Virus record (IMG/VR): IMGVR_UViG_3300029258_005166
Coordinates: 1-64,000 of that record
Source of the DNA: a virus
DNA length: 64,000 nucleotides
Direction: 5' to 3' (one strand)
Part shown: positions 5,820 through 56,976 of the stretch, in pieces
Numbering within the stretch: the first letter of the stretch is position 1
How the letters are laid out: the number at the start of each line of letters is the position of its first letter
Translations under genes and position numbers: made by a program
The notes under the pieces: model-generated
The model's database searches: none
The model's input: the letters and a program-made list of their open reading frames with translations, nothing else
Told to the model about the DNA's origin: nothing

Positions 5820-6009
5820 ACAAATTGCCATAGGTTATCTCAAACTTATGGAAATTGATATGCCTAATGATCTTCTGCCTATGTTTGAACGCTCCATTAT
5901 GGCAGCCAGAAATCAAGATCCTACCATAGAAACTGCCACCGATTTCCAGGTGTGGGTTAGAAGTCTCACTTTTGAAAACGAGTCCGATGCTCTCCCATTG
6001 GAAGTATGA
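5797..6009 (+). CDS. Hypothetical protein
   Basis: GAGG RBS, overlapping start. Confidence 0.5.
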   Translation: MKRRKTNKQIAIGYLKLMEIDMPNDLLPMFERSIMAARNQDPTIETATDFQVWVRSLTFENESDALPLEV

Positions 6010-6052
6010 ATCGGAACGGGCATCTAAACTTATGAATAGTTAGGAGAAGCAA

Positions 6053-6277
6053 ATGTATGCATGGATTGGAATGCCGGGACCGATGGAAATGATAATCATC
6101 GGTATTGTTGCTGTCCTTCTTTTCGGCAAAAGACTTCCGGGAGTCGCAAAGTCCATCGGCCAAAGTATCACCGAATTTAAGAAGGGAATCAAGGCCATCG
6201 AAGAACCTCTTGAGGAAACAAAAAAAGAACTCAAGGAAGCAACAAGAGATGTCGAGAACGCAGTAAATAAGCCGTAA
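6053..6277 (+). CDS. tatA: Twin-arginine translocase subunit TatA/E
   Basis: GPMEMIIIGIVAVLLFGKRLP..AKSIGQSITEFKKG. Confidence 0.92.
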   Translation: MYAWIGMPGPMEMIIIGIVAVLLFGKRLPGVAKSIGQSITEFKKGIKAIEEPLEETKKELKEATRDVENAVNKP

Positions 6278-6294
6278 ATATTTAACCAGTGACC

Positions 6295-6325
6295 AGCCCA
6301 CTCTCGCCGTAGGCGAGAGTGGGCT
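6295..6325. repeat. Perfect 14-bp hairpin with TCGCC-GTA-GGCGA core between convergent genes
   Basis: AGCCCACTCTCGCC GTA GGCGAGAGTGGGCT. Confidence 0.85.
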
Positions 6326-6986
6326 ATTTCTTTTTCTTGTTGGGATTTCTTCCTCGTTTTCCAAAGAGATTTCTATGTTTGGCCAACACTTCATTAACGT
6401 ATTTCACTCGATTTCCTCCGATGGCACTGACGACCCTTGAGGCAAAGTAGCCATCGCCCCCAACTCGACCAATGTCTTTCCAGCCAATCGCTTTGGCCAC
6501 GGCATTTCGGACGATTATGTTTAGGCTGTCCACCCCCATAACTCTTAAAGCTTTGGGATTTCCCCATCTATGCTTGGGAAAGGGCTTCATGCCCATATAC
6601 GAGTGCAGGATTTTAATGATGATTAAGTCGTGTTGCACGTCAAATTCGTCATTTAAGCGTTCCAAAAAGTTATCATAAATGATATTGTCGTCATCTAAGA
6701 AATGCAACCACTCTCCTCTTGCCTGCCGGATCATATAGTTCCTCTGCTTGTTGCCTGATCGCCCTGTTTGGGTCGTAAAGCAGTATTTAATTCTATGATC
6801 TTTATAGTGGGCCACCAGCAACTTCGTTTTCCTGCACTCATTCTGGGTGCATATCAAATGCTCCCAATTCTCGTATTTTTGGGCCAAAACAGACCCTATG
6901 CATTCCCGGAGAGCATCACACCTAAGATCGAATTTATAGGTCGGAGTGATGAAGGTAATGTCTGGTTTGCGTTCAAATCTTAGCAT
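6324..6986 (-). CDS. Family 2 glycosyltransferase
   Basis: ITFITPTY, SVLAQ.YENWE, WLHFLDDDN. Confidence 0.85.
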   Translation of the reverse strand: MLRFERKPDITFITPTYKFDLRCDALRECIGSVLAQKYENWEHLICTQNECRKTKLLVAHYKDHRIKYCFTTQTGRSGNKQRNYMIRQARGEWLHFLDDDNIIYDNFLERLNDEFDVQHDLIIIKILHSYMGMKPFPKHRWGNPKALRVMGVDSLNIIVRNAVAKAIGWKDIGRVGGDGYFASRVVSAIGGNRVKYVNEVLAKHRNLFGKRGRNPNKKKK

Positions 6987-7030
6987 ACAAAAAAATGGGT
7001 CCGATACTTCTTTATTTAGGAGGATTTCTT

Positions 7031-8071
7031 ATGAATATAGGCATCATTGGTACGGGTTTTGTGGGAACAGCGGTTTTTGAAGGCATGAAACATGCTGTAG
7101 AAGTTCTGGCTTGGGACAAGGCCAAGGGGTGGCAAAGCTCTAAAAGCAATGAACCGCCCGTTGTTCATGACGAATATGGAGGTTACCGGCCCGACCTGTA
7201 TATTTGCACCCCAGTTGACCAAATCAAGATGGAGAAAGATAAGGAACATCCGTACTCCGATCCAGGACACAGCGACATCTATTATTTGATGAAGCATACT
7301 TGGGGGCCGGTTTTCATTTGTGTTCCTACTCCAATGAGAAGCGATGGTACTTGTGATTTAAGCATCGTCGAGTCTGTAGTAATGGAGGCGGATCAAGCCG
7401 CAGCAGATGTGGAAGCATGGCATAGAAGCCAAGAATCTTATGATGGCACACCATTTGCCCGCCGAGTTCTCGTTATTAAATCGACAATTCCGCCTGGAAC
7501 CACGAAGCGACTCAATGATAAGTGCAAGCACACAATTGTCTGCTTCAATCCTGAATTTTTAACGGAAAGAACATATATTGATGACTTCAAAAATCAGGAT
7601 CGCATCATTCTTGGTGGTCCTCACGAAGGTACAGCGGTTTTGAAGCAACTATATCAGAAGACATATCCCAATGTTCCCACAACCAAAACAAGTTCCACAA
7701 TTGCGGAAATGATTAAATACGTGACCAATTGTTTCTTGGCTACGAAAGTTTCGTTCGCGAACGAGATCGCTCAAATCTGCGACAAACTGGATATTGATTA
7801 TGACAAGGTTGTGGAATACGCAACAAAAGACAAGAGATTAGGCACATCGCACTGGGCGGTTCCAGGGCATGATGGTCATTTGGGATTTGGAGGTAGTTGT
7901 TTTTGTAAAGACATAAATGCGTTAATGTCTTTGGCCAAAGAGTTGGGAGTTAAAACGACTGTTATGGATGCCGCTTGGGAAAAGAATCTGGAAGTAAGAC
8001 CAGAAAGAGATTGGGAAAAACTAAAAGGAAGAGCAGTATCGGAGGAACAATGCCTGAACACAAACACTTGA
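7031..8071 (+). CDS. ugd: UDP-glucose/GDP-mannose dehydrogenase family, short phage type lacking the C-terminal domain
   Basis: IGTGFVG, FICVPTP, VIKSTIPPGTT, NPEFL, GFGGSCFCKD. Confidence 0.88.
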   Translation: MNIGIIGTGFVGTAVFEGMKHAVEVLAWDKAKGWQSSKSNEPPVVHDEYGGYRPDLYICTPVDQIKMEKDKEHPYSDPGHSDIYYLMKHTWGPVFICVPTPMRSDGTCDLSIVESVVMEADQAAADVEAWHRSQESYDGTPFARRVLVIKSTIPPGTTKRLNDKCKHTIVCFNPEFLTERTYIDDFKNQDRIILGGPHEGTAVLKQLYQKTYPNVPTTKTSSTIAEMIKYVTNCFLATKVSFANEIAQICDKLDIDYDKVVEYATKDKRLGTSHWAVPGHDGHLGFGGSCFCKDINALMSLAKELGVKTTVMDAAWEKNLEVRPERDWEKLKGRAVSEEQCLNTNT

Positions 8072-8442
8072 TAGTTCGTGCGGTGGTCACGAAGCCCATT
8101 GTAGATGTCGATGTCGCCAAAGATTGGATGAAGCGACTCATCGATCAAATAGGAATGAAGATTACAGAGCATGGCGGCCCCCATTGTGATTACGTTAAAA
8201 AACCAGGGAACGAAGGTATCGCGATTGTCGCAATAATTGAAACAAGCCATTGTGCGATGCACATCTGGGATAAAGAAGACCCTCCCATCGCCCAACTAGA
8301 CGTATATTCTTGTGCTGAATTTAAAACTTGGGATGTCATCGAGTTTATCTACGAAATGGAGCCTTCCAAGATCGAATTTAAGGTTTTCGACCGATCAAAA
8401 CACATAGATGAAATTCGCCCGAGCCACTGGCAAAAAAGGTAA
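8050..8442 (+). CDS. speD: S-adenosylmethionine decarboxylase proenzyme
   Basis: HKHLIV, AIIETSHCAMH self-cleavage region, LDVYSC; GGAGG RBS. Confidence 0.85.
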   Translation: MPEHKHLIVRAVVTKPIVDVDVAKDWMKRLIDQIGMKITEHGGPHCDYVKKPGNEGIAIVAIIETSHCAMHIWDKEDPPIAQLDVYSCAEFKTWDVIEFIYEMEPSKIEFKVFDRSKHIDEIRPSHWQKR

Positions 8443-8446
8443 TAAA

Positions 8447-8767
8447 ATGGAACTAATCAAACTGCAAATGACACCAGGATTTCTAGGACAACTGATGGAT
8501 CTGCCACCTACAGCGAGAATTGTAGAATGTCGAACAAATGATTTCGATACGATTATACTTAGTATAGCCATTGAAGGAGAGTTCCCAATGGATCGAAAGC
8601 TCATAAATTTTTCAAAGCTTTATGAGATTGGAGCATTTGTCCGAAATCCAATGAATCCAAAATATGACCCGCCATCCTTGAGTTACGGTTTGGGTGATGT
8701 TCGGGGACTGACCACGGCTGAAAAACTGCCAGAAGAAACAGAAGAACAAGAATTAGGAGAATTATGA
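8447..8767 (+). CDS. Hypothetical protein
   Basis: AAGG RBS, operon context. Confidence 0.6.
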   Translation: MELIKLQMTPGFLGQLMDLPPTARIVECRTNDFDTIILSIAIEGEFPMDRKLINFSKLYEIGAFVRNPMNPKYDPPSLSYGLGDVRGLTTAEKLPEETEEQELGEL

Positions 8768-27817: not shown

Positions 27818-27894
27818 AACTTACAAGAGTGAATGAAAGAATTGAACGGCAAGAAATTGTCTAATAAACAGTATATATTTAACTCTTGGTGACC

Positions 27895-28437
27895 ATGGCA
27901 ACAGAATATCTCAATAACAAAGTTTTCGAGAACATTATTTCCAAGTTCCAGAAGACCAAAAAGCAAAAAGCTCGTTTCGAGCTAATAATAGAAGACTTGT
28001 CCGATACCATTCAACGAAAACGTCGTCGGAAAACCGTTACCGAGGCAAATCGTGCCAAATTGAAAGCAAACAAACAACTCTATCAGCAAGTAATCTCGGA
28101 TCACACAGTTACGAAAGATGACTTGGCCCTAGCCTTCCTTACTCTTTCCGAAAATCTCGTTCGATTTGCCAAATTCAATCTAATTGAACCCTCGGACGCA
28201 ATCCAAGAAGGAGTTATGATCTGTTTCGACAAAATAGATCGTTTCGATCCCAGAAAAGGGAAGGCTTTTAACTATATGACAACCTGTATTTTAAACCATT
28301 TCAGGCAATTGTATAGGACAGCCAGGAATTATAATGAACTAAAGAAGCGGTATTTGCGTCATTTACAGATAGCAGAGAAAATCATTATTAAGAATGGTAA
28401 GGAAATGACTAATTGGAACCATGGTTATGGATTTTAA
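27895..28437 (+). CDS. T4 gp55-like late sigma factor (region 2 only)
   Basis: EYLNNK, DAIQEGV..C...DRFDP.K..AFNYMT.CI.N.FRQ; no region 4. Confidence 0.82.
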   Translation: MATEYLNNKVFENIISKFQKTKKQKARFELIIEDLSDTIQRKRRRKTVTEANRAKLKANKQLYQQVISDHTVTKDDLALAFLTLSENLVRFAKFNLIEPSDAIQEGVMICFDKIDRFDPRKGKAFNYMTTCILNHFRQLYRTARNYNELKKRYLRHLQIAEKIIIKNGKEMTNWNHGYGF

Positions 28438-34931: not shown

Positions 34932-34945
34932 GTAGGTATATAGTT

Positions 34946-36071: not shown

Positions 36072-36087
36072 ACTTTATTTAGCAAAA

Positions 36088-36122
36088 AAGCCCGCTTTTC
36101 GCCTACGGCGAAAAGCGGGCTT
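36088..36122. repeat. Perfect 16-bp hairpin with TCGCC-GTA-GGCGA core between divergent genes
   Basis: AAGCCCGCTTTTCGCC TAC GGCGAAAAGCGGGCTT. Confidence 0.85.
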
Positions 36123-36139
36123 CATTCATAGATACCTAC

Positions 36140-37074: not shown

Positions 37075-37197
37075 AAAAATAACCTCCTTACTAATCTTCA
37101 GCCAATTACGCAGAAGGAAAACAACAGCAAACACGCTAAATATAGCAAGAGGAAATTCAAGAAATGGCTGAAGACCAAGGGCATCCTGCTGGAATGA
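37075..37197 (+). pseudogene. C-terminal remnant of an HNH homing endonuclease
   Basis: NLQPITQKENNSKHAKYSKRKFKKWLKTKGILLE*, no start, upstream in-frame stop. Confidence 0.55.
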
Positions 37198-40774: not shown

Positions 40775-41400
40775 GAATCGTTCTCCATCTTTTTATTTAT
40801 AGCATCTACTAACTTTGTCATAGGACGCAAGGTATCAACAGGCAATACATAATTTAAGTGACCGTTGCCTTTGCGTCCTGGTTCTACGTTGCATTTTTCG
40901 ACATCTTGCTTTAAGGCAAATCCTGTCATAACAACAATTGCGGACTTCTTCTCTCGATTTTCTTGTTCAATATATGCACATACGAAAATGTCTTTATCAA
41001 GAGGAATCTTCTTTCCCCATTCATTTGTGTGATATATCAACACATCCTCACGGTATCGCATCGCACATTTCATATCAGCTTTATATCCGAAAATTAAATT
41101 GTCTTGCCGATCTCCACCACGCTTATATTCCGTATCAACAGGCAATCCAGTTAATTTACCAAAAGCCATTTGTGCTAAAATGCCAGTTCGGGCAGGTTTG
41201 TATTTATCATCTTTTGTTGCTCCTAAACCTGCTCCATAAGCCCCTGGTTTCGAGTTTCCCCAAAAATTACCTCCTTGTGAGGCTCGCTCGCATTCTTCAT
41301 ATTCTTGCCCCTCGACTTCTACTACAATACATTCTTTTTCTCTTCCATTAAATTGCCGTTTCGCAATTTGTGGCTGAAAAATCTTCGTTGGATGATACAT
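40759..41400 (-). CDS. Putative restriction endonuclease (divergent PD-(D/E)XK-like)
   Basis: G.LAQMAF..D....GGD..D......DMK pattern; directly downstream of the MTase. Confidence 0.5.
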   Translation of the reverse strand: MYHPTKIFQPQIAKRQFNGREKECIVVEVEGQEYEECERASQGGNFWGNSKPGAYGAGLGATKDDKYKPARTGILAQMAFGKLTGLPVDTEYKRGGDRQDNLIFGYKADMKCAMRYREDVLIYHTNEWGKKIPLDKDIFVCAYIEQENREKKSAIVVMTGFALKQDVEKCNVEPGRKGNGHLNYVLPVDTLRPMTKLVDAINKKMENDSCKTK

Positions 41401-42343
41401 TAAAAATCCTTTCATTAAGAACATCCTTGATTATACATCCACTAGGATAAATTAGCAATTCCATTTTTGTTCTTGTCAGCCGTTCGCCTGTCTTCTTATC
41501 TTTCAAGGCTGTAATGCTATAATTCACTCCATCAATTTCTTCGATAAATGCCCAATTATATAAATCCCTAATTTCTGGACAATCATCATAAGATAAGACC
41601 CATTGATGTTTCGTATTTTTTAATGAAGTAGCCAAACGATGATGGTCTTCCTCGGTGAAGCCATGTTGATATAAGTCATTGCCTTTCACAAAATACGGTG
41701 GATCGAGATAAATTACAGCATCGTTTTCGGTGTCATCAATAACATCAGCAAAATCCAGGCAAGTGCATCTGTTCTTTCTAATTGAAAGCCCAACCATTTT
41801 TGTATGAAGTTGGTCAATTTTCTTGCAAATATAATCAGGCGACCAACGACAATCAATTGGATACTTAACTTCATCAGTCATACCACGTCCAGCAATATTT
41901 TCTTTTTTTCGCCCACCGAGCGGGCCACCTGACATTGTGCCAAGACCTGAATATGAAATTTGATGGATTGCTAATTTCATAAAACCATATTGAGCGATTT
42001 CTTCGGCAGTTTTGGGTTTTGTTGGATTTTCCGCAGTAAGTTCTGTTTTGAAATCATCAAACTTTTTCACTGATGGCGTGAATTTATTAACCAATTTTTT
42101 CAAAAAGTCAGGATGTTGAATAACGGAAGTCCAAAGGCAGGAAATGCCTAAGTCATTATCATTGATCCATAGTTTCTTAATCAATGTATTATCTTGAAGA
42201 ACTTTCAATCCGATACTGCCACCACCAAAGAAAGGTTCTCGATATTCAAGATTATGTCCGTTTGCAATTGTGTCTAACCGAGCGGCAATTTGATTTCTTA
42301 ATTTACTTTTTCCGCCTGGATACCTAAAAAAGCTCATTGTCAT
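41348..42343 (-). CDS. Dam-like (D12 class) N6-adenine DNA methyltransferase
   Basis: RYPGGKSK, EPFFGGGS, INDND, IYLDPPY. Confidence 0.92.
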   Translation of the reverse strand: MTMSFFRYPGGKSKLRNQIAARLDTIANGHNLEYREPFFGGGSIGLKVLQDNTLIKKLWINDNDLGISCLWTSVIQHPDFLKKLVNKFTPSVKKFDDFKTELTAENPTKPKTAEEIAQYGFMKLAIHQISYSGLGTMSGGPLGGRKKENIAGRGMTDEVKYPIDCRWSPDYICKKIDQLHTKMVGLSIRKNRCTCLDFADVIDDTENDAVIYLDPPYFVKGNDLYQHGFTEEDHHRLATSLKNTKHQWVLSYDDCPEIRDLYNWAFIEEIDGVNYSITALKDKKTGERLTRTKMELLIYPSGCIIKDVLNERIFNVSSNEDFSATNCETAI

Positions 42344-42371
42344 GGTTCTCCTAGTTCTTATTATATTTGTT

Positions 42372-44444
42372 TTATACTTCTGTTGCAACGGCAACTTCTA
42401 ATTCCTTAACTGAAAGAAATTGTCCTTTCTCGTTGCGTTGTATTTTTTGCTTTTTCTTACTTTCTGATATTTTCTTACGAGTTTCTTCATTCATTGGCTT
42501 TCCCAGACGGCAATTCCTACGTCCGTTGTATTTTTCATTGATCGCTTTAAATTCTTTTGAGTCCAAAATTTGTTTCGGAATAAATGGATTGACCGAGATT
42601 ATTTCAACTCGACATATTTTACAGATGTTGTTTTTCTCGCCAGTCGTGTCAAAATGCAATTTGATTTCTTTAAGATGAGGACGTAACAAAATTGCTTTGT
42701 CTTCACCGCTCGCTTGTAATACGTCTTTGCAAAGAGTTTCAATGGTCGAAGCCATTTTCAATAAATGTTCTTTGGCACGACGATATTCTGGCACTAAAGA
42801 AACCAGATTCGCTTCTAGCACTTCAATTTCTAGTTGTTTATCCTTGATGAATTGTTTAACATCGGGGTCGTCTGCTATATCACTGAATTTCAAAATCAAT
42901 TTTTGTTTTTCAGATTTTAGATCAGCGATTTTAGATTTTACCGACTGACTGGCTTCATCAAATATTTCTTGATATGTAAGCTCGAAATAATCAGCATTGG
43001 CATCAGTTGCCGTATATTTCCAAGCACGTTTTTGGAAATTCTTGGTCTTTTCTTCGTCGGTTTCGCCAGGAAGGTTTGTCAAAATAAATCGGTACATCTT
43101 CTGGGCGACTTCGCCGCAAAACTCATTGGCATTGGATGACTTCACTTTCTCACAAAGAGCGGTATAACTTTGTCCAAGCCATTTAAGCCAATTGTCGATT
43201 ATTTCATGGATAACATCGGCTTTGACAGCACCACATTTATTACAGCGATAATTTTTTGACGGCTTCCATTTTGTGCTATTGGAGACATAAAGAATATCTT
43301 GACAATTATCACAGAACAAAAAACACTTCGCCCAAAAATCACCTAAATTAGCTCGTCGTAATCGTTTATAATCAGTTTGATTGTCTTTGAGGTATTTGTT
43401 TATTCTATCCCATTGCTCCACCGAAATAATGCGAATGGACGTTCGTTCTTCTTCGGTTAGAGGGACGACAACTATCTCGGTATTCAACCGAGCAGTTTTG
43501 GCTTTCGAGACTTGATTATCAATTGGATAACCCTTGTAGATTGAATTTGTTAATATGCACTTGATCGTCTTGGCACCCCACTGCGAACTCATACTTTTGA
43601 TGTTTTTCGCATTCAAAATACAAGCAATTTCGTGCGAGGTTTTATAGTTTGGAGCATCAGCCAGATCAAAGATTTCTTTTATAATTTTGGCACGTTCGAC
43701 ATTGATGATTTCTGTTTTTCGGTCGCCTTTTTCCATTGACGGGGCAGACGTAAGCAACACCCAATTATGACCATCTTGAACCCATTGATCGTGATATGCT
43801 TCTCGCTTGCCATCTGGTAATTCTTTCCATCGCATCAATGCGTAATTGGCACGACTTCTGGTATTTTTAGGTGGATCAGTCCAGTGTCGTCCCTCACATT
43901 TTTTGTAGCCATCGTAAATGACCTTATATTTGAAGGTTCCTTCACGATTGAACACAATCCAGTCGTATCCATAAGCACACATTTTGCCAGGGCTAGATTT
44001 TTTCTCAATGGTTTTGCGACGGGCAATTTGAGTTCTATATCCTTTCTTTTCTATTTCGGCAGAAGAAGCCAGTTGATTTTGCACTGTTCTCATTGTTGAC
44101 GCAAGATCGTTCATATCAACAATTTGTTCATCATTGGCAGTGATGATTTTTATATCCAACTGCTTCAAAGAGGTGATGAAAAACCCAATTTCGGCAGGAT
44201 TTTTGAAGCCAATTCTATCGTGATCTCGATAAATGACATATTCTGGTTTGGTGGTTTTTAATTTAGAAATTAAATTTTGTGCTTCATCGAGCATGTCCCA
44301 GCGTGGTACGCCATTTAATGTTATTTCATCAATCATTTTCCAACCCATTTTGCTAATAAACGGATCAATTATCATGTCTTGATTAGACAGTTCCATCGGG
44401 TCAGAAACATTGGATTTTCTTCTTATTTTAACACAAGTAGTCAT
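42372..44444 (-). CDS. Large serine recombinase/integrase with C-terminal NUMOD3-like motif
   Basis: RKS...Q catalytic region, DRIG, AYGY, IKCILTNSIYKG, IIS.EQWD, C..C/YRC zinc ribbon, coiled coil, MNEETRKKISES. Confidence 0.88.
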   Translation of the reverse strand: MTTCVKIRRKSNVSDPMELSNQDMIIDPFISKMGWKMIDEITLNGVPRWDMLDEAQNLISKLKTTKPEYVIYRDHDRIGFKNPAEIGFFITSLKQLDIKIITANDEQIVDMNDLASTMRTVQNQLASSAEIEKKGYRTQIARRKTIEKKSSPGKMCAYGYDWIVFNREGTFKYKVIYDGYKKCEGRHWTDPPKNTRSRANYALMRWKELPDGKREAYHDQWVQDGHNWVLLTSAPSMEKGDRKTEIINVERAKIIKEIFDLADAPNYKTSHEIACILNAKNIKSMSSQWGAKTIKCILTNSIYKGYPIDNQVSKAKTARLNTEIVVVPLTEEERTSIRIISVEQWDRINKYLKDNQTDYKRLRRANLGDFWAKCFLFCDNCQDILYVSNSTKWKPSKNYRCNKCGAVKADVIHEIIDNWLKWLGQSYTALCEKVKSSNANEFCGEVAQKMYRFILTNLPGETDEEKTKNFQKRAWKYTATDANADYFELTYQEIFDEASQSVKSKIADLKSEKQKLILKFSDIADDPDVKQFIKDKQLEIEVLEANLVSLVPEYRRAKEHLLKMASTIETLCKDVLQASGEDKAILLRPHLKEIKLHFDTTGEKNNICKICRVEIISVNPFIPKQILDSKEFKAINEKYNGRRNCRLGKPMNEETRKKISESKKKQKIQRNEKGQFLSVKELEVAVATEV

Positions 44445-46771: not shown

Positions 46772-46828
46772 TAAAAGAGTGACATTAAGAAAATATCACA
46801 CTCTATTTATTAACCGAGGGTAAAAAAT

Positions 46829-46859
46829 AACCCACTTTCGCCGTAGGCGAAAGTGGGTT
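46829..46859. terminator. Hairpin with TCGCC-GTA-GGCGA core, likely bidirectional terminator
   Basis: AACCCACTTTCGCC GTA GGCGAAAGTGGGTT flanked by A/T runs. Confidence 0.82.
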
Positions 46860-47728: not shown

Positions 47729-48565
47729 ATGAAAAAATGGACAATTTTACTACTAGCGTTATTGCTCCTGGTCCTCTGGATCAAAAAGACCCGAAATACC
47801 GGACCTCGGTATATATCCGAGGGAGAGATCGTCCAACCGGGCGAAATCAGCCCGATTCCTCCGGGAGTAGTTATCCCGGTTGTAAAGGAAATCAATGAGC
47901 GAAATTGGCAAATTCAGAGTGTTATATTCAGGGAAATCAAGCTTCGTTTCAAAGAAGGTGTGTTTAGTATTGGACTGCATGGCGATATGTTTTACGAGAA
48001 ATCCAGGAATTTTCAAGCTGAACTTAGATCGGTTTTTGGAAAGGAACTGGAACTGGGTTCCAATGACACTTACTTTTGGTTTTGGTCCCGAAGAATGGAG
48101 CCTCCCGCGATCTTCTATTGCCGACATGATGAGATGCACAAATCTAGACTACGGACTCCTTTTAATCCCGTCTGGATTATTGAATCTCTTGGTTTAGGAG
48201 AGATTTCAACACAGGACGCTCAGGTAGAAATGATGGGCAAATATTGTAAGATTGTCCAAATGAGGAGAAGCACACTGGGAAAAATGGTCAAGAAAACGAC
48301 CTTAATCGATTGCCAGAAAAAGGCCATCATTGGTCATTACATTCACGACAACAATCAACTAATTGTGAGTAGTGAAGTTGAAGAGTTTTCCCATCTAGAT
48401 GGATTTATGATTCCGAAGAAAGTTTGTGTTATTTGGCATGAAGAAAAAGTCGTTCTTCACTGGGATTTTCTGGAACCGGCATACATCAAGACAGGAAGTC
48501 CGCGTCTTAACATCGATTGGAAAATGCCTCGCGGAAAATTGATGATCGACATGGCTACTTATTGA
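47729..48565 (+). CDS. Membrane-anchored/exported protein, possibly LolA-like fold
   Basis: Signal anchor; ELGSND.YFWFW motif. Confidence 0.7.
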   Translation: MKKWTILLLALLLLVLWIKKTRNTGPRYISEGEIVQPGEISPIPPGVVIPVVKEINERNWQIQSVIFREIKLRFKEGVFSIGLHGDMFYEKSRNFQAELRSVFGKELELGSNDTYFWFWSRRMEPPAIFYCRHDEMHKSRLRTPFNPVWIIESLGLGEISTQDAQVEMMGKYCKIVQMRRSTLGKMVKKTTLIDCQKKAIIGHYIHDNNQLIVSSEVEEFSHLDGFMIPKKVCVIWHEEKVVLHWDFLEPAYIKTGSPRLNIDWKMPRGKLMIDMATY

Positions 48566-48764
48566 GCTTTCGTCTGGCGATCTGGGCTCTTCGCTTTCGT
48601 TCGATAGTTATCCGACTATCCTGTCTCTCGCTATTGGCCGATTTAAGAGCCTTCAACTGTTGCCGTCTCGATGGCACTCGATTGATTCCCCCTTTCGCAG
48701 GCCGTGGTCCAATTGTGGGTCTACGACCATGTCTGCGACCACTTCCACATCCACATCCTGGCAT
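48555..48764 (-). CDS. Small basic GCGC-motif protein
   Basis: MPGCGCGSGRR..., Arg-rich; GAGGTG RBS. Confidence 0.7.
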   Translation of the reverse strand: MPGCGCGSGRRHGRRPTIGPRPAKGGINRVPSRRQQLKALKSANSERQDSRITIERKRRAQIARRKLNK

Positions 48765-48771
48765 TTGCACC

Positions 48772-48900
48772 TCACAAGATTTTGGTTTCTTTGTGTTTAA
48801 CTAATTTTCGCTGCGTGTTCCGGTTCTTTTTTAGACTACGACGCTTCACAAGACCTGAACGACCGCCCTTTTTTCCGCCGCCTCTACATCCACAACCCAT
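48772..48900 (-). CDS. 42-aa basic GCGC-motif protein (not in ORF track)
   Basis: MGCGCRGGGKKGGRSGLVKRRSLKK...; TAATG coupling with the sigma gene. Confidence 0.65.
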   Translation of the reverse strand: MGCGCRGGGKKGGRSGLVKRRSLKKNRNTQRKLVKHKETKIL

Positions 48901-49556
48901 TATTTTTCTAAGCCTCCCTTTTTCAGCCGTCGAAGTAGGTCTTTCTTTGCTTGGTGAATCGCTCTTTTGACCGTTCCTATAGGAAGATCTTCTTCTTGAG
49001 CAATCTCACTAATTTTCATTCCATCGAAATATTGCTTCATCAAGAATCTAGTTCGTCTTTCACTATATCCTCCCTCTGCAAGCATTGCCTGCAAAGCTCG
49101 ATACATGAGTTCTTTGTGTTCATGTTCTGAAGCCAAAGTGGTTGGATCATCTTTCGAAGAGATGCTCGGAAGACCAAATCCGACTTTACCCATTTTCTTA
49201 GGGCTCATTTTTAAGACGGTTTCCCCCGGATCAGAAACGGTAGATATTTTTTGTCTACGGTAATAGTTGGCCATCGTATTGCGAATGACCGACCAGATCC
49301 AATTTTGAAAATTCTTGGGAGGGGCCTTTTCCATTGCTTGGATTATTCTTTGAATAACCTCTTGTGTAATATCTTCAGCATCTTGTTGGTTCTTGCTTTT
49401 TCGTAGAATAGCTGAAAAGATTTTTCTCTCCCACCTTGCTAGAAGATTCGCAAGTGCAGACCGGTCCCCTTCTTTTGCGGCAGCTACAAGAACTTGGTCC
49501 TCTGTATCTTCCGAAAATAGCGGGTCATCATTTAACCAGTCTCGAAAATCCATCAT
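48900..49556 (-). CDS. ECF-type sigma factor with CTS-like N-terminus (MMDFRDWLNDD)
   Basis: DAEDITQE, F.NWI..VIRN...NYYR, EIA...LPIGTVKRAIH. Confidence 0.92.
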   Translation of the reverse strand: MMDFRDWLNDDPLFSEDTEDQVLVAAAKEGDRSALANLLARWERKIFSAILRKSKNQQDAEDITQEVIQRIIQAMEKAPPKNFQNWIWSVIRNTMANYYRRQKISTVSDPGETVLKMSPKKMGKVGFGLPSISSKDDPTTLASEHEHKELMYRALQAMLAEGGYSERRTRFLMKQYFDGMKISEIAQEEDLPIGTVKRAIHQAKKDLLRRLKKGGLEK

Positions 49557-51685
49557 TGTTCCTGTTCTGGGGATTTGGGGGGAGAGAAAGGCTTGCTAAT
49601 TCTTTCTCGTTGCTCCGGTGATGTTAAAGGGGAAAGTCCTCGTATCATTTGTTCTCTTTCGGCCTTTCTTCTTTTAGCTTCTTCTTCCGGTAGTCCGTAC
49701 AGTAGATGTTTCAATGGAATCATTTCTGATACCTTGGCATATCCATGTGTCACAGGAATCTTAATTGTTTTAAGGGCATTCCTTCCTTTATCGAGCCAAT
49801 TGTTGACCATACCTGTTGTCGCTGGAATAAATGGCAACATCGTATCTGTGAGGCTGTCAATCAAATCTTTTAACTCAAATATGGCAATAGCATTTCCCGA
49901 TTTCCAAGGAGCTTTCTGTAATTGACGCAAGTAATCTCGTATATCATGGATAACGTTGTGTACAGCAACCGTTTGCTGTCTCGTTCTCTTGTCAAGTTCT
50001 TTTCTTCGCTCCACGATAGCGTCAAACATTCTGCTGTGTCCTCTTCCCAAGGAACTTCCTTCGCCGCGTCCCAGCTTCGCAATCTTTTTTACCCCAGCCA
50101 AAGCCTTCTCCAAATGTTCCTGGCTCCTTTGTGCCATTTGTGTTGTGTGCTTTTCTTGGCCTGCTGCCGAGGGCCTTTGCATCGGAACGATCTTTTGTCC
50201 TCGCACTTGGGGAACAGGAGGAAGAGCCCACAAGGGGATTCTAATCATGAGTTGATTCAGCCTGTCTTCTCTCCCCTTCCACAATTTATGTTCTTTGCTC
50301 CCCGGCCTATGTTTGTATCTTTGATTGGTTGCGTTATTCCAATCTTTTTTCATTTGTTGAAGCAGTGTGTCTACGGCTGCCATTTGTTCATCAAGCAATC
50401 GGTCAATCTCCGCTTTGTTTTTAAAGACGTTCTCATTAAGGGTTTTTTGAATATCATTCGGCAATTTGGCTATAACATTCGGTGCCGAACGCATAAAATC
50501 CTCTGATCTCTCTTTCCGTGCCTCATGCTCCAGTTTGTTCCATTCCGCCGCACAATGTCGTTGAGCCCCTCCTTCTTTTAGTCCCACCGATCTCATTCCA
50601 GCACTAATGTGTGGTTCGTATTCGCCCCGTTCATTTTTATTGAAACCATAGTAACAAAGCAATATCATTGCTTGTCGATAACCCTCATCCCCGGTCTGCT
50701 TCAACTGCTCTAATGCTCGAAATAGTAGTTCTTCTCTCTCCGATTGCATTAACTCTCTGTCGGGAATTTTGAATGGTGAGCGGCCAAAAGTCTCTGCCCC
50801 ACCACCGGGTCGTTGGCCACCTTTGCCCGTTACGACGGTTGGGGCGGTTTCTCTGCCCATTACTGGATCTCCCACTCGACCCCGTCTAGCACCTCCAATA
50901 CCAAGACCCGGCTCCCATTCTTCTCCTTCCTCGCCAGCACCGATTTCAGTCGGAACCATGAGGTGACCCCTCTTTTTTTCTCTCGCCTGTATTTGGGCAA
51001 TCTGCTCTGGACTCATTCCCCGATATTTTTCGGCCTCTTTTTCAGCTTTCTCTTCGGGAGTCATTTCTACCGACTGAAAAAAAGGTTTTGCCCTTAGTTT
51101 TTCCTGAGTCCGAAGGATGTCGCTTCCACGCTTTGCTAGGAGAGGCATATATGCTGCTACACCTCGCTGAAAAATATCACTGATCGGCTTGTATTGTCCT
51201 TTTGATTTCTCGGTAATCTGTGTGAGTAATTTTTCAAACATCGGACCAATAATTTCAAGAGCCCTTTCAGGGTTGCCTGTTTTTCGTTCGGCGGCTGTCC
51301 TCGCTACTTCAAACAATTCCCCGATTACGTCCCTGGCTCGTTCTATGTCGTTCGCAAGTGCCACCGCATTTGGATATCGTTGTCGAGCCTCCTCGGGCAT
51401 ACCTCGTTCTAGTTGTTCGGGACTCATGGCATCTAGAATACTAACCGCCTTTCCACGTTGTTGGCTAAGTGTTGCCATCTTCTCCTCTACAGCCGCACGT
51501 TCTTGACGTGACAATTGCTTAGATGCCTCCTCTTTTAGCTGGGCATGCCAACGCATAGTATGGGCAGCATCGATATACTTCTGCTCATCTCCTCCTTGTT
51601 CCAGAAAGAGACAAACGGCTTCAACGACAACCCGCTTAATATCTTGAACGTTTTCTTCTAAGCAGAGCCATTCCCTAAACAACAT
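49553..51685 (-). CDS. 710-aa expanded sigma-like protein with CTS-like N-terminus (MLFREWLCLEE)
   Basis: Three blocks align by eye with the adjacent ECF sigma; GAGGT RBS and CTATATA upstream of 51685. Confidence 0.65.
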   Translation of the reverse strand: MLFREWLCLEENVQDIKRVVVEAVCLFLEQGGDEQKYIDAAHTMRWHAQLKEEASKQLSRQERAAVEEKMATLSQQRGKAVSILDAMSPEQLERGMPEEARQRYPNAVALANDIERARDVIGELFEVARTAAERKTGNPERALEIIGPMFEKLLTQITEKSKGQYKPISDIFQRGVAAYMPLLAKRGSDILRTQEKLRAKPFFQSVEMTPEEKAEKEAEKYRGMSPEQIAQIQAREKKRGHLMVPTEIGAGEEGEEWEPGLGIGGARRGRVGDPVMGRETAPTVVTGKGGQRPGGGAETFGRSPFKIPDRELMQSEREELLFRALEQLKQTGDEGYRQAMILLCYYGFNKNERGEYEPHISAGMRSVGLKEGGAQRHCAAEWNKLEHEARKERSEDFMRSAPNVIAKLPNDIQKTLNENVFKNKAEIDRLLDEQMAAVDTLLQQMKKDWNNATNQRYKHRPGSKEHKLWKGREDRLNQLMIRIPLWALPPVPQVRGQKIVPMQRPSAAGQEKHTTQMAQRSQEHLEKALAGVKKIAKLGRGEGSSLGRGHSRMFDAIVERRKELDKRTRQQTVAVHNVIHDIRDYLRQLQKAPWKSGNAIAIFELKDLIDSLTDTMLPFIPATTGMVNNWLDKGRNALKTIKIPVTHGYAKVSEMIPLKHLLYGLPEEEAKRRKAEREQMIRGLSPLTSPEQRERISKPFSPPKSPEQEQ

Positions 51686-51738
51686 TTGTATTACCTCACT
51701 GGAGTATATAGGATTTTCGTCTCCATTTAGTGAGGTAG

Positions 51739-51769
51739 TCGCCCGCTCCCGCATTGCGGGAGCGGGCGA
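51739..51769. repeat. Perfect 14-bp hairpin, CCCGC-AAT-GCGGG core on minus strand
   Basis: TCGCCCGCTCCCGC ATT GCGGGAGCGGGCGA. Confidence 0.8.
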
Positions 51770-51775
51770 GCTTGT

Positions 51776-52678
51776 TTATTGATTCTTAAGCCATTTATAG
51801 TATTCTCGGATTCCTGCTTTAATATCAAATTTTGGATTCCATTTGAGCTTACTAACAGCTTTTATGACACTGCATTCGGTGTGATTTTGGTAACTTTGTT
51901 CATAAGGATTTGGGATATATTCGGGAGAAATCTCGGTTTCCATAACCTCGTTCCAGGCTTCGACGATATCGTTGAATGAGACGGCTTTACCAAAACCGAC
52001 GTTGAAAATACCGCTACCTGAATACTGGCTTGCCAACAGATTGATTTTAACTACGTCTTCGATGTAGCACCAATCTCGTTTTTGCTCTCCATCTGAGAAC
52101 AATTTGGGGGATTCTCCATTCTTCATCTTTTGGTAGATCTGATATACCATACTGGCTCTTTTTCCTTTATGGCTCTCTCCTGGTCCGTAGACGTTGCAAT
52201 ATCTGAGTCCAATAATGTTTGCTCTAACCTCGTCGGAAAAATTCTTGGCGAAGCTATCGAACAGGGCTTTCGAAATACCATAAGTGTTGAGAGGCCTTAT
52301 ATAGGTCATGTCGTCTTCTCGATACGGGACACAAGCATCTCCGTAAACTGCTGTGGAAGAAGCATAGACAAATTGTCTGCATCCGCCCTCATAGGCCTTT
52401 CTAAATAGCTCTTTTGGGGCTTCAACATTTGCTCGACTCATTTCGCGAGAATCGTTATCTAAAGTATCGTTATTAGCTGCTTGATGGAAAACGATATCTA
52501 AACTTTTCACTTCTTTCCAGTCAATTCCGGTTAGATGGCAATTAAGCAATTTAACTTTGCCGGGCAACTTATTTTCTGTTTGGCATCCCGTAGCAGTTAC
52601 CGAATGCCCCAATTCTACTAGAATTTTTACTAAATTTGAACCAATAAAGCCTGTTCCCCCCGTGACTAACACTCGCAT
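51776..52678 (-). CDS. gmhD: ADP-L-glycero-D-manno-heptose 6-epimerase-like SDR
   Basis: VTGGTGFIGSNL, FHQAA, YASS.AVYG, PLN.YG.SK, LRY.NVYGP.E.HKG..AS. Confidence 0.85.
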   Translation of the reverse strand: MRVLVTGGTGFIGSNLVKILVELGHSVTATGCQTENKLPGKVKLLNCHLTGIDWKEVKSLDIVFHQAANNDTLDNDSREMSRANVEAPKELFRKAYEGGCRQFVYASSTAVYGDACVPYREDDMTYIRPLNTYGISKALFDSFAKNFSDEVRANIIGLRYCNVYGPGESHKGKRASMVYQIYQKMKNGESPKLFSDGEQKRDWCYIEDVVKINLLASQYSGSGIFNVGFGKAVSFNDIVEAWNEVMETEISPEYIPNPYEQSYQNHTECSVIKAVSKLKWNPKFDIKAGIREYYKWLKNQ

Positions 52679-52867: not shown

Positions 52868-52981
52868 CTAGGTGTAAACTCTAGGTTTATGTAGCAAAGG
52901 TTTGCCTTTGCGAACTAATTTTTCTCGCCTTTGCTGGCTCTTAGTACGTTCTTGTTTCTGAAGCCACTCTCGGAAATTCAT
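52868..52981 (-). CDS. 37-aa basic protein with CTS-like N-terminus (MNFREWLQKQE; not in ORF track)
   Basis: CTAAATA 4 nt before ATG; shared motif. Confidence 0.65.
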   Translation of the reverse strand: MNFREWLQKQERTKSQQRREKLVRKGKPLLHKPRVYT

Positions 52982-52985
52982 ACCC

Positions 52986-53010
52986 TATTTAGACATTAGG
53001 CGACTAGATA
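52986..53010. promoter_or_regulatory. Back-to-back putative late promoters (CTAAATA minus, CTAGATA plus)
   Basis: Each lies 4-7 nt before the ATG of a CTS-motif gene. Confidence 0.6.
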
Positions 53011-53017
53011 TGGTTGT

Positions 53018-53329
53018 ATGAAACCCATGAATTTTCGAGAGTTTGTTTATCAAGAAAAACCTCGACAGAATTATGCTGATATCGAGGTTGCGAATCTCTA
53101 TTTTCACAATCAACTTAAAGTCAGGGAGATTTCCGAACTAACCGGCAGATCAATTGGTGAAATTTACAGGGTAATTCGCATACAAGGTGAACCAAATCGA
53201 AAACGGCGAGATCAAGGAAACGTAATCGCCCTGGCCGATTCGGGCCTTGGACTCAGAACAATTTCCGATCTTACGGGCTACACAACTAGGCATATTCGAA
53301 ATATCTTGAAAAATGGTAAGTCCGACTGA
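53018..53329 (+). CDS. Tandem double-HTH DNA-binding protein with CTS-like N-terminus (MKPMNFREFVYQE)
   Basis: VREISELTGRSIGEIYRVI and LRTISDLTGYTTRHIRNIL. Confidence 0.8.
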   Translation: MKPMNFREFVYQEKPRQNYADIEVANLYFHNQLKVREISELTGRSIGEIYRVIRIQGEPNRKRRDQGNVIALADSGLGLRTISDLTGYTTRHIRNILKNGKSD

Positions 53330-54107: not shown

Positions 54108-54790
54108 TGGAGTGTCCGCTAACCGGTAAACCTTGCGAAAAACCTAAACCTTATTCGATTACCGAAATAGAAAATGGGCAAGTGTACACTTTTAAACTTT
54201 GTGAAGATTGCATTCTTGCCTATATCGAAAAACAGAAAAGCAATCCAGTTCAAAAGACGGTAAATGTGATACAGAAACTCGTAAAAACTCTTGGCACATT
54301 ATTGGGGATGTTAACCAAGACTAAACCCGAACCCGAACCCGAACCTGAATCCAAACCCGAAAAGATTCTATCATCAATGGATATTCGTTGTCCTGTTTGT
54401 GGTTCAGCATTTACGGACTTGGCATCTAAAATGAAATTTGGTTGTCCCCAATGCTTCGAAACATTCTCAGGGCCAACTATTCATCTTGTTAAAACGCTTC
54501 AAGATGGTTTAAAACATGTAGGGAAGGTTCCCAAAACACATGGAGTAAGTCATAAATCGAAAAAGAAAATCAACCCTGCCAGATATCTTGCCATCAAACA
54601 AGGCCAGATGGAAGATGCGGTTGTTGCAGAAGATTATGAGAAGGCCGCTTTAATTCGCGATCAGATGCAGATTTTTGAAAATCTCATTCATTCGTTCAAA
54701 GAAGCATCAGAGCAAAAAGATCAACAGCGAATTGTTGTCACTTATCGTGAGATTCGCAAATTTGTGGATAACGATCAGGACTACGGCTAA
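54107..54790 (+). CDS. mcsA: McsA-like protein (CxxC motifs plus UVR domain)
   Basis: LCEDC, CPVC, FGCPQCFETF, HVGKVP, AV..EDYEKAA.IRD. Confidence 0.82.
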   Translation: MECPLTGKPCEKPKPYSITEIENGQVYTFKLCEDCILAYIEKQKSNPVQKTVNVIQKLVKTLGTLLGMLTKTKPEPEPEPESKPEKILSSMDIRCPVCGSAFTDLASKMKFGCPQCFETFSGPTIHLVKTLQDGLKHVGKVPKTHGVSHKSKKKINPARYLAIKQGQMEDAVVAEDYEKAALIRDQMQIFENLIHSFKEASEQKDQQRIVVTYREIRKFVDNDQDYG

Positions 54791-56976
54791 CCTTCTATTG
54801 CGTCCATGAGTTTTCTTGGATCTATAATACCATATCCTTCAAAAAACTTTCTTCCCGCGAGCTTTCTATTGCGAATCGGAGTTGTATGGGTTCTGAGTAC
54901 CTTGCGATAATCATCAACTGTTTTCAATGTTAGTTGATCGGTCTTTCTGCTGTAAGCCAACAACAATGCTGCCACTCCACAGGCAAACGGAGCCGCCATA
55001 CTGGTTCCCGAGAGAAAGGCATACCAATTGTCGGGGACCGTGCTGAAAATCCTTCCGCCCGGTGCCATAAAATCTAATTGTTTACCAGTATTTGAAAAAT
55101 CAGATCTATCTAGGTCTTCATCAATAGAGCCAATCGAAATTGTTTCGGGATAAGCCGCTGGGTAGAAAACTTCGTCTGTTCTGCCCGCATTGCCAGCCGC
55201 GACGAAGCACGGGATTCCTCTCTTGGCCGCAAACTGTATGGCCTTACGAACCTGTTGAATGGGTCGTGGGGCTCCCAAAGACAAACACATCATGTCGGCA
55301 CCTTGAGTGACTGCCCAACGAATCCCTCTGGCTACATTTTCTAAGTTTCCATCGCCCTTCTCATTGAGAACCTTTACCGGCAATACCTTAGATTTGGGAG
55401 CCACACCGACCGTGCCGATCTTATTATCCAGGGCACAGATGATACCCGTGACGTGTGTGTTTGATACAAAGTGACCATTTGCAATATAAGTATTTGTTTT
55501 TTGGGTTGTGAAATCGTAAAAATTTCCTTCAAAAACTTCCTGATGGATATTTTTTATTCTTCTTATGGATCTTCTTTGACTGGTTTGATTTGCCAATATC
55601 CTTTGTTTTTTGTGCGGTGAAGCAATCCACTTAGCAATTTCCGCTGGCAATTTGCTGAAAACCACATTAAATATTGGAAATTTAAGGTTATTTTTTCCTC
55701 TGAATTTGTTTTTGTACCTAACAATACCAGCAGATATTCCAATTCCATTTAAGATTGCAGATAGATGTTCTGCAAAATCTTTTGAAACAGTAGTAACTCG
55801 ATTACCCGTGTTAGTTCTTGAAATACACCCATCACCATCAATAACACCACCAAGAAATGCTTGAATGATAGCAAGCGGTGATTTTCCTATAAATTCAGGC
55901 AAAGTCTGGAAATAAGTTTTTCCTTTTGATTTAATTCCTACCGCTTGCAATAGCAAAACAAGTCTTTTTGAATTTATCAACAATCTCGGACAGCGATTCT
56001 TTGGACAATCTATTCTACAATTGAATCCCAATTCTTTAAGAAATCTTTTTGCTTGTTCTAAGATCGCTTCATTTTTATTTGTTATGTCAACTCGATAGTT
56101 GCGATCATGAATGATATGGCCATCGGTCAACACTAAGCCACAAATATATGCCAATTTTTCATTTGCAAATTCGGTAGACATAACCCATTGTTTTTGCCGA
56201 CACTTTTTGCAATTTGATTTCGGGATTTTACATTTTGGGATATGCCCACAATTTTTGCATCTCCAAACTTCATACGTGATTCTGTAGGGCTCGCTTGAAA
56301 GGCTAACTGAACTATTGGATAAAATCAGCCTGTCTTCTTTGTCTAATTCATCTGCTCTTTTCTTGAAAATTTTTGACCTGCGTCCTTTTGTCATTCTCGA
56401 AACGATTACCGGGTGCCACGGTGTTAACTTCAATTCAAGTCCACCTTCCATCTCAATACAGATTAAATTGGTTTTTACTGGCATTTTGTGAACGTGCGTT
56501 ACAGTATCAACCACAGTTTTTTCTGTTTTTAGATCGAAAGAAATGGTTTTGATTCCTAGAGAAGAAACATCACGTAATTTTGATGTATACCCATCTGAAA
56601 ATTTTTGGTTTTGTTCCTGTACGGGCAACCGATTATAGAGTTCTTCTATGGTTTCTGTACCGCAAAAATTAGTTTGGATGATCGATGATGGATGGACACA
56701 TCCATGTTGATTGTCGTCCCAAGGTTTTCGTCGAGGATTGATGAAATTGACTCCGGGAAGAAGGTTTGCTTTGAGATCAGGATGATCTAAATCACAGCCT
56801 GTATCCAGAACAGCGACTTTTACACCCTCACCCTTAGTGATTTTCCATGCATCGGGCAAATCAAAAGTGCTTATACCCCAGCCCAAGTGCTGTCGGATTT
56901 CCTGTATGGATACAATCTCCTCCCTTTTGAAAGGAAATAGACTGCACTCTCCTTTCTTCTTTTTCTTAGCAGCCAT
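54787..56976 (-). CDS. Subtilisin-like S8 peptidase containing an intein
   Basis: VAVLDTG, HG|THVTG, AAGN, SGTSMAAP. Confidence 0.92.
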   Translation of the reverse strand: MAAKKKKKGECSLFPFKREEIVSIQEIRQHLGWGISTFDLPDAWKITKGEGVKVAVLDTGCDLDHPDLKANLLPGVNFINPRRKPWDDNQHGCVHPSSIIQTNFCGTETIEELYNRLPVQEQNQKFSDGYTSKLRDVSSLGIKTISFDLKTEKTVVDTVTHVHKMPVKTNLICIEMEGGLELKLTPWHPVIVSRMTKGRRSKIFKKRADELDKEDRLILSNSSVSLSSEPYRITYEVWRCKNCGHIPKCKIPKSNCKKCRQKQWVMSTEFANEKLAYICGLVLTDGHIIHDRNYRVDITNKNEAILEQAKRFLKELGFNCRIDCPKNRCPRLLINSKRLVLLLQAVGIKSKGKTYFQTLPEFIGKSPLAIIQAFLGGVIDGDGCISRTNTGNRVTTVSKDFAEHLSAILNGIGISAGIVRYKNKFRGKNNLKFPIFNVVFSKLPAEIAKWIASPHKKQRILANQTSQRRSIRRIKNIHQEVFEGNFYDFTTQKTNTYIANGHFVSNTHVTGIICALDNKIGTVGVAPKSKVLPVKVLNEKGDGNLENVARGIRWAVTQGADMMCLSLGAPRPIQQVRKAIQFAAKRGIPCFVAAGNAGRTDEVFYPAAYPETISIGSIDEDLDRSDFSNTGKQLDFMAPGGRIFSTVPDNWYAFLSGTSMAAPFACGVAALLLAYSRKTDQLTLKTVDDYRKVLRTHTTPIRNRKLAGRKFFEGYGIIDPRKLMDAIEG
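55459..56700 (-). mobile_element. 414-aa intein with LAGLIDADG homing endonuclease
   Basis: Starts CVHP, TPWHP block B, YICGLVLTDG and FLGGVIDGDG, ends YDF...NTYIANGHFVSN before Thr. Confidence 0.93.

Follow-up and report, generated by a model that had tools for sequence, protein, structure and literature searches.

Overlapping genes for a tagged extracytoplasmic function sigma factor and a long sigma-like protein in a huge phage with a T4-type head

Why would a phage that appears to encode a T4-type late sigma factor carry a second sigma factor gene behind what looks like a late promoter, and why would that gene overlap one for a much longer, sigma-like protein? The locus that raises this question lies in positions 1-64,000 (the window) of the 135,444-bp IMG/VR virus record IMGVR_UViG_3300029258_005166, which is called G000 where the whole record is meant. 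It comprises the genes for a 710-residue sigma-like protein (49553..51685, stop included) and for an extracytoplasmic function (ECF) sigma factor (48900..49556), both on the minus strand. Both products begin with a short motif, the tag, that resembles the capsid-targeting sequence (CTS) of phage T4. Our tentative answer is that the pair is cargo, loaded into the phage head by its tags for use in the next cell.

An ECF sigma factor behind an overlapping long gene

The short protein matches Pfam Sigma70_r2 (PF04542) in region 2 (3e-12, 46.6 bits against a cut-off of 24) and Sigma70_r4_2 (PF08281) in the helix-turn-helix (HTH) of region 4 (3.4e-8, 33.4 bits against a cut-off of 25.7). The sigma70-ECF model TIGR02937 was matched end to end, residues 33-210 aligning to positions 2-165 of 165 (78.5 bits, cut-off 42.9). 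This match, in a protein of 217 residues, indicates a two-domain architecture in which regions 1.1 and 3 are absent. A further match was to phrog_1740, which carries a sigma factor annotation (2.6e-22). The closest bacterial relatives are only 25-33% identical, and phage-annotated sigma factors are 22-27% identical. The tag is borne on an N-terminal extension that the bacterial homologues do not have. Judged from its sequence, the short protein is almost certainly a genuine ECF (group 4) sigma factor. A first-pass annotation of this DNA had called it a normal ECF sigma, and both Pfam regions and TIGR02937, all above their cut-offs, bear this out.

The open reading frame (ORF) of the long gene extends over 49553-51754. 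Its likely start is the ATG at 51685, with GAGGT 8 nt upstream, which yields 710 residues and is also the start of the public protein P0001. The sigma gene begins within an ATGATG. Its product has 218 residues if translation starts at 49556 and 217 if it starts at the second ATG (49553), as in the public protein P0004, which opens with MDFRDWL. The TGA of the long gene (49555-49553) sits within the same six nucleotides and overlaps the sigma start by 4 nt or 1 nt, depending on the ATG. The coordinates given in the first-pass annotation, the place of the long ORF upstream of the sigma on the same minus strand, and the translational coupling that it had proposed from the stop/start overlap were thus all found as described. 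No anti-sigma gene was found downstream of the short sigma.

A sigma-like module in the long protein

The first-pass annotation had aligned the long protein with the short sigma by eye in three colinear blocks (region 2, region 4.1 and the recognition helix), and had described it as a paralogue with an insertion of about 270 residues in region 4. We compared an alignment of the long-protein family (A2) by hhalign with an ECF profile of 80 sequences, made up of 76 ORFs from 80 loci, the window sigma, the sigma of a related metagenome contig (L004), P0005 and P0006. The result was one colinear alignment of residues 109-352 with profile columns 20-167, that is, from region 2.1 to the end of region 4.1 (score 38.0, P 1.6e-4, probability 50%). 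Eighty-six controls of the same composition stayed well below this: the reversed alignment reached 12.6, 45 global column shuffles no more than 23.7, and 40 local shuffles in 25-column windows no more than 21.5. Single family members compared with the same profile gave P values of 0.0013-0.0054 at colinear positions. Unfiltered hmmsearch gave partial matches that agree with hhalign, different family members matching different but colinear parts. BLASTP between the long protein and the short sigma recovered the region 4.1 block (E 0.037), and hhalign against the four nearest sigmas recovered the region 2 block (P 0.045). The first two of the three blocks were therefore recovered in the same register by independent programs, and the colinear alignment that holds them both scored above all 86 controls.

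When both phage sigmas were dropped from the profile, the score was still 34.9 (P 4.6e-4), and the two phage sigmas alone gave 24.6. The long protein therefore shows no particular affinity to the adjacent sigma, and bacterial ECF sigmas are at least as close to it. The sequences thus do not indicate a local duplication of the sigma gene, and the term paralogue, in that sense, is not supported.

An AlphaFold2 (AF2) model built with A2 has a mean predicted local distance difference test score (pLDDT) of 61.7; a single-sequence prediction of the 733-residue frame (pLDDT 41.4) was unusable. In the A2 model the helix boundaries coincide with the aligned sigma helices 2.1, 2.2, 2.3/2.4 and 4.1. The region 2-like segment delimited by hhalign (residues 109-198; 51092..51361, minus strand) has a pLDDT of about 64-83, and the helices 107-136, 139-158 and 176-198 align with ECF regions 2.1, 2.2 and 2.3/2.4. 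Residues 241-312 are disordered. The region 4.1-like segment (residues 306-352; 50630..50770, minus strand) follows with helices 314-329 and 333-345. Behind residue 352 lies a low-confidence loop, with the family invariants C344, G347, F348, E357, P358, S361, M364, C378, A379 and W382, and then a predicted long antiparallel helical bundle that has no sigma counterpart (residues 373-616; 49838..50569, minus strand). Most likely, on the strength of these alignments and predicted helices, the long protein has as its N-terminal half an ECF-sigma-like module that has diverged strongly and consists of region 2, a long disordered linker and region 4.1. That the protein as a whole is derived from a sigma factor we regard as probable.

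Several results weigh against this reading of the long protein. The family is nearly an orphan: among 1.84 billion representatives, a search at E 0.001 returned only the protein itself, P0002 (666 residues, 29% identity, E 2.8e-34) and P0003, a 303-residue fragment. The L004 long gene (6001-8004; product 29% identical to the window protein) is a further relative, and the four-row alignment A2 holds about three effective sequences. The window's long protein had no match in Pfam, PHROG or NCBIfam, and the signature residues of sigma region 2.2 are poorly kept in it. A sequence profile search of the PDB gave chance helical matches only (best E 0.021, to a designed protein), and the ESM Atlas yielded no usable match for the whole protein or for residues 95-430. 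A Foldseek search of the PDB with the long-protein model, in which the N-terminal half was not searched alone, found nothing at E 0.001 or below. The VIA-align rows cover only the helical bundle (residues 373-622), and no sigma fold was recovered. Word-indexed homologue searches (with P0001 and with A2) returned P0001 alone, scans of IMG/VR with alignments A1 and A5 gave no relatives of the long protein, and blastn and tblastn searches of the phage collection gave no match to it.

The long protein might then be no sigma derivative at all, but a helical internal head or ejection protein whose resemblance to sigma factors is an artefact of composition and helix pattern and whose coupling to the sigma gene is incidental. 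The failure of every curated model to reach its threshold fits this account, as do the modest hhalign probability and pairwise BLASTP E value given above and the generic helical bundle that makes up whatever AF2 models with confidence. It sits badly with a score of 38.0 where shuffled and reversed controls reached at most 23.7, with two separated sigma regions in colinear order, and with family members that match different colinear parts. It also does not explain why Sigma70_r2 was the sole family that Pfam reported on the L004 fragment, weakly and below its cut-off of 24 bits (E 0.021, 15 bits), or why the gene pair and its overlap are kept at 29% protein identity. We consider this alternative rather improbable.

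The third block of the first-pass annotation, the supposed recognition helix, did not fare well. Residues 621-640 (49766..49825, minus strand) form a conserved helix followed by a beta-hairpin, and P621, W630, A637 and L638 are invariant in the family; AF2 places a helix (624-640) and a beta-hairpin behind the helical bundle. In a sliding-window test against sigma region 4.2 (84 windows), this block scored 14.6-14.7, which is not above background, compared with 18.4 for residues 217-258 and 15.3 for residues 401-442. A region 4 profile placed on the C-terminal part matched best at residues 405-414 (P 0.098). Because the recognition-helix match is at background, the insertion of about 270 residues within region 4, which is topologically possible, is unsupported.

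Neither the profile nor the 84-window scan detected a region 4.2 HTH in the long protein, a further point on the negative side. A working sigma factor requires this element. A likeness to regions 2 and 4.1 in a protein with no detectable region 4.2 would suit a sigma mimic that regulates rather than initiates, either as an anti-sigma factor or chaperone that silences the ECF sigma in the producing cell, or as a decoy on the host core enzyme after entry. The stop/start overlap suggests matched production of the two proteins, and a late-made sigma might have to be kept in check during gp55-type late transcription. We nevertheless rate such a mimic as decidedly improbable; against it stands that the long protein bears no likeness to the known anti-sigma domains in Pfam and NCBIfam. 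Homology to gp55 or gp33 was not detected in the long protein either. A predicted complex of the long protein with the sigma scored 0.00, which amounts to no verdict and speaks neither for nor against binding.

An N-terminal tag that resembles the T4 capsid-targeting sequence

The long protein opens with MLFREWLCLEE (51653..51685, minus strand), in which aromatic residues occupy positions 3 and 6 and L-E-E ends at residue 11. Its relatives open with MLFKEWLQDVE or MLFREWLQDVE. A six-frame translation of the 135-kb record contains the strict motif F[RK][DE][WFY][LIVMF] nine times, and eight of the nine occurrences begin at ORF residues 3-5. The general motif M-x(1-4)-[FWY]-x-x-[FWY]-[LIVFM] opens 18 of 180 crude gene calls where 1.9 would be expected (P 1.7e-12), and it also opens the long protein, the ORF at 37194 and a 37-residue peptide when their likely start codons are used. 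The DNA upstream of the tagged genes is unrelated between genes, and selection on the tag therefore acts at the peptide level. We are highly confident that the tag is real.

The N-termini of the T4 proteins IPIII and IPII (MKTYQEFIAE) and IPI (MKTFKEFT), taken from AF158101, are similar. According to the accessible part of PMC9026906, the 10-residue CTS of T4 is sufficient for packaging, its residues 4 and 7 serve targeting and residues 8 and 10 processing, and an Asp at position 10 stops cleavage and leaves targeting unaffected. The N-terminal enrichment, together with the likeness to T4 at the targeting positions, sustains the claim of the first-pass annotation that both proteins carry a CTS-like tag. 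Processing may be represented as well. Of 20 tagged proteins, 8 have an [LI]xE that ends at residues 10-12, and the long protein is one of them (LEE ending at residue 11); of 160 untagged proteins, 18 have a match at any point within residues 5-16 (P 0.0025).

The tag opens about 20 ORFs, close to 10% of the crude gene calls; examples in the window start at 1005, 12138, 18565, 37194, 47676 (minus strand), 52981 (minus strand) and 53027. The set includes an HTH protein, small basic or low-complexity proteins, a 2H-phosphoesterase-like protein (phrog_755, G000 91965-92504) and a 397-residue protein. The make-up of the set suggests a large predicted ejected proteome. A divergent tagged pair at 52868-53329 encodes a very basic 37-residue peptide (MNFREWLQKQE...) and a 100-residue HTH protein (MNFREFVYQE...). 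CTAAATA or CTAGATA lies 4-20 nt before each ATG of this pair, and both genes are kept in L004 and recognisable in G001, a distant 527-kb phage. The tag is also present in the 595-kb uncultured phage LR756511.1 and in G001.

Late-type promoter motifs and a T4-type head module

CTATATA, a candidate T4-type late promoter (-10-like) element, lies 19 nt before the long-gene ATG (51705..51711, minus strand). The window holds 10 copies of CTATATA compared with 2.9 expected, a count reached in 1 of 100 shuffles. Among the 7-mers found ahead of genes, CTAAATA shows the strongest enrichment (15 upstream regions, 26 copies genome-wide), and CTATATA is among the next. Taken together, CTA[AT]ATA occurs 45 times in the 135 kb, and for 37 of the 45 an ORF of at least 35 residues starts within 70 nt. 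Among these ORFs are those of the large terminase (phrog_2, 1.4e-42) and the long protein, together with many of the tagged ones. The T4 late consensus TATAAATA itself was not enriched in this DNA (1 found, 2.1 expected). CTAAATA starting at -12 is given as the putative late promoter of the T4-like phage Aeh1 in the accessible part of PMC1524935, so that the late-type CTATATA motif noted earlier ahead of the operon matches a described variant of the T4-type late promoter. It is reasonable to infer from this motif that the operon is expressed late.

Many copies of CTA[AT]ATA end only 1-9 nt before a start codon, for example at 34943 and 52992 in the window and at G000 92516 and 81499 (all minus strand). 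T4-type late promoters initiate about 6 nt downstream of the motif; with the same spacing here, the mRNAs of those genes would have almost no leader or none at all.

The CTA[AT]ATA motifs are probably read by a gp55-like late sigma encoded at 27886-28434 on the plus strand, which matches phrog_234 (5e-8) and, in the genome scan, Sigma70_r2 (26.6 bits). Jumbo phages with gp23-type capsids are described as having no RNA polymerase of their own and as recruiting the host enzyme with phage sigma factors (PMC7824862, accessible part).

G000 also encodes the head machinery that a T4-type tag would call for: a Gp23 capsid protein (PF07068, 1.8e-85), a gp21-type prohead protease (Peptidase_S77 PF03420, 9.6e-29; phrog_207, head protease, 6e-50) and, outside the window, a portal protein (101248-105030, minus strand; phrog_213, 1.7e-62). 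The order of the module is T4-like, with portal, small ORF, 580-residue ORF, protease, 301-residue acidic ORF and capsid protein. The capsid protein is 79% identical to its counterpart in LR756511.1. The source is a huge phage with a T4-type head, and the record is a fragment of its genome (CheckV completeness of the 135,444-bp record, 25%).

Conservation in related genomes

L004 shows the same gene order as the window, namely subtilase, UVR-domain protein, tagged HTH protein, tagged 38-residue peptide, epimerase, long gene and sigma. The ATG of its sigma gene (8004-8645) overlaps the stop of the long gene. Between the two genomes the sigmas share 46% identity, and the L004 sigma starts with MEFRDWLNEEE. 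Despite the divergence, which is greater still in the long proteins, L004 keeps the pair, the stop/start overlap, both tags and an identical 20-nt block with promoter and ribosome-binding site, CTATATACTCCAGTGAGGTA, before the long gene.

Two other genomes differ. In LR756511.1, tagged genes lie near the capsid gene, but neither the long protein nor the sigma was matched. In G001 there was no match to the long protein; of its four Sigma70_r2 matches, two were above the cut-off, and the one that was checked (190 residues) is untagged and has no long ORF upstream. LR756511.1 thus lacks the pair and G001 the long protein, and the pair is therefore an accessory module of a sub-lineage rather than the general entry mechanism of the clade.

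A packaging model and its alternative

A late-type promoter on the operon, in a genome with an existing gp55-type late sigma, makes it difficult to see the ECF sigma as a regulator of the ongoing infection. There is good motive to regard an ECF sigma with a T4-like tag, encoded beside a T4-type head machine, as better explained as cargo for the next cell. In this model, both proteins would be made late from the gp55-type promoter, and the tag would dock them on the scaffolding core of the prohead. The gp21-type protease would trim the long protein after LEE11, and both proteins would be ejected with the DNA to reprogram the host RNA polymerase at entry. We infer each of these steps (late timing, packaging, cleavage, ejection and action on RNA polymerase) from gene content and motifs. 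For the full chain, in which the proteins are packaged, ejected and act on the host polymerase, we see a prospect just short of even. The more specific version, a virion-borne ECF sigma and 710-residue partner loaded by their tags, with the first transcripts made by host core enzyme under the phage sigma and independently of the host primary sigma, is more tentative.

The points against this model beyond those on the long protein are as follows. In the window sigma the tag is followed by LND, and residues 5-16 contain no [LI]xE; its L004 counterpart has LNE. The loose form of the tag motif also occurs on the DNA primase, which is unexpected in a virion; about two chance hits are expected, and the primase may be one of them. 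Counts of 5-mers and 4-mers upstream of the 180 crude gene calls revealed no bipartite promoter of the ECF type, only A-rich pairs plus AAAAG..GCGA. Finally, the restriction of the pair to a sub-lineage, with both genes absent from the close 595-kb relative, belongs here as well.

The absence from that relative and the motif on the primase would also be expected if the two proteins were an ordinary intracellular regulatory pair that acts in the producing cell, for example on a further temporal class of genes, with an N-terminal motif unrelated to capsid targeting and nothing packaged. Described phage sigma factors do act in the producing cell, and the accessible part of PMC7824862, in its account of jumbo phages with gp23-type capsids that recruit the host polymerase with their own sigma factors, makes no mention of packaging. 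Such a pair would leave unexplained why the motif matches the T4 CTS at functionally mapped positions and co-occurs with [LI]xE and with late-type promoters, in a genome that has a T4-type protease, scaffold position, portal and capsid protein. For the late genes, moreover, a gp55-like sigma is already present. An intracellular pair therefore seems unlikely to us, and the model of head-loaded cargo is the one we carry forward.

Other features of the window and the record

A very basic ORF of 42 codons, MGCGCRGGGKK..., lies directly downstream of the sigma gene (48772..48900, minus strand). Its ATG overlaps the sigma stop (TAATG), and coupling may extend to it as the third gene of the series. 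With a paralogue at 48555-48770, two small, very basic ORFs with MGCGC and MPGCGCG starts occupy 48555-48900 on the minus strand; a related ORF, MGCGCGGGKRK..., is found behind the sigma in L004.

Upstream of the operon, the sequence can be read as a G+C-rich hairpin with a 12-bp stem and a 3-nt loop (51741..51767, minus strand), directly after the epimerase gene (51776-52678). This hairpin is likely to be a terminator that separates the epimerase gene from the sigma operon. Terminator-like hairpins with a shared C-UAC-G loop and GCC/GGC closure (CGCCTACGGCG) occur at 6270-6310, 36085-36125, 46805-46845 and elsewhere. An enrichment of CGGCGA upstream of genes was considered as a promoter signal and rejected, as it stems in part from terminator hairpins with a CUACGG loop.

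Mobile and modifying genes are also present. The subtilase gene (54787-56976, minus strand; Peptidase_S8, 1.9e-49) is split by an intein with a LAGLIDADG homing endonuclease, and the L004 subtilase gene in the same position is uninterrupted. A D12 adenine methyltransferase and a 690-residue recombinase-domain protein are encoded within 41348-44444 (minus strand) of the window, and a transposase (G000 69807-70931) and a LAGLIDADG endonuclease (G000 73688-74260) outside it. CTATATA precedes the recombinase-domain, transposase and LAGLIDADG genes. The portal gene encodes 1260 residues, and its best portal match spans residues 926-1143 alone, with weak matches to unrelated families elsewhere; it probably carries one or more inserted elements such as inteins.

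Significance and comparison with known systems

On the prevailing view, a phage sigma factor is synthesised once the phage has entered the cell, and the T4 capsid-targeting system is so far known for small anti-restriction proteins. A literature search that took in the accessible parts of PMC7162821 and PMC7824862 returned no report of a sigma factor with a capsid-targeting sequence or with virion delivery. If the packaging model is true, the protein described here would be the first virion-delivered sigma factor, and a sigma in the capsid would represent a third, cheaper route of transcription takeover at entry. The T4 capsid-targeting system would extend to regulators, and the tag would provide a sequence rule to predict the ejected proteome of uncultured huge phages. 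The nearly orphan 710-residue family may in addition show a sigma scaffold rebuilt into something else.

N4 and phiKZ-type phages inject a whole RNA polymerase, and T4 injects the modifying enzyme Alt. In each of these systems, the N4 virion RNA polymerase, the phiKZ-type virion RNA polymerase and T4 Alt, the head carries a protein that redirects transcription and leaves the virion together with the DNA, and the same logic is predicted here. The difference lies in the cargo, which consists of polymerases or a modifying enzyme there and of a predicted sigma factor here. Packaging of RNA polymerase in the virion of phiKZ-type phages is described in the accessible part of PMC7824862.

The closest parallel to the tag is provided by T4 IPI, IPII and IPIII, which share with the proteins described here an N-terminal peptide of about 10 residues in which two aromatics at a spacing of three precede an aliphatic residue and, in many cases, [LI]xE. 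In both cases the genome encodes a gp21-type protease and a gp23-type capsid protein, and the cargoes are otherwise unrelated to each other. Unlike the T4 proteins, the cargo predicted here includes a sigma factor, a 710-residue sigma-like protein, an HTH protein and a 2H-phosphoesterase-like protein. There are also about 20 tagged genes in 135 kb, and the tag is usually one residue shorter than in T4, with aromatics at positions 3 and 6.

For the sigma pair, two comparisons are apt. With bacterial ECF (group 4) sigmas and the ECF-like sigmas annotated in phages such as the crAss-like ones, the short protein shares the full architecture of sigma-2 plus sigma-4. It differs from bacterial ECF sigmas in its tagged N-terminal extension and in the sigma-like gene that overlaps it upstream, in place of an anti-sigma gene downstream. 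The split late sigma of T4, gp55 and gp33, distributes sigma function over diverged or partial modules, as may be the case here, and this genome has a gp55-like protein as well. Unlike gp55 and gp33, the long protein appears to join sigma-2-like and sigma-4.1-like parts in one chain, to which a large helical bundle is added.

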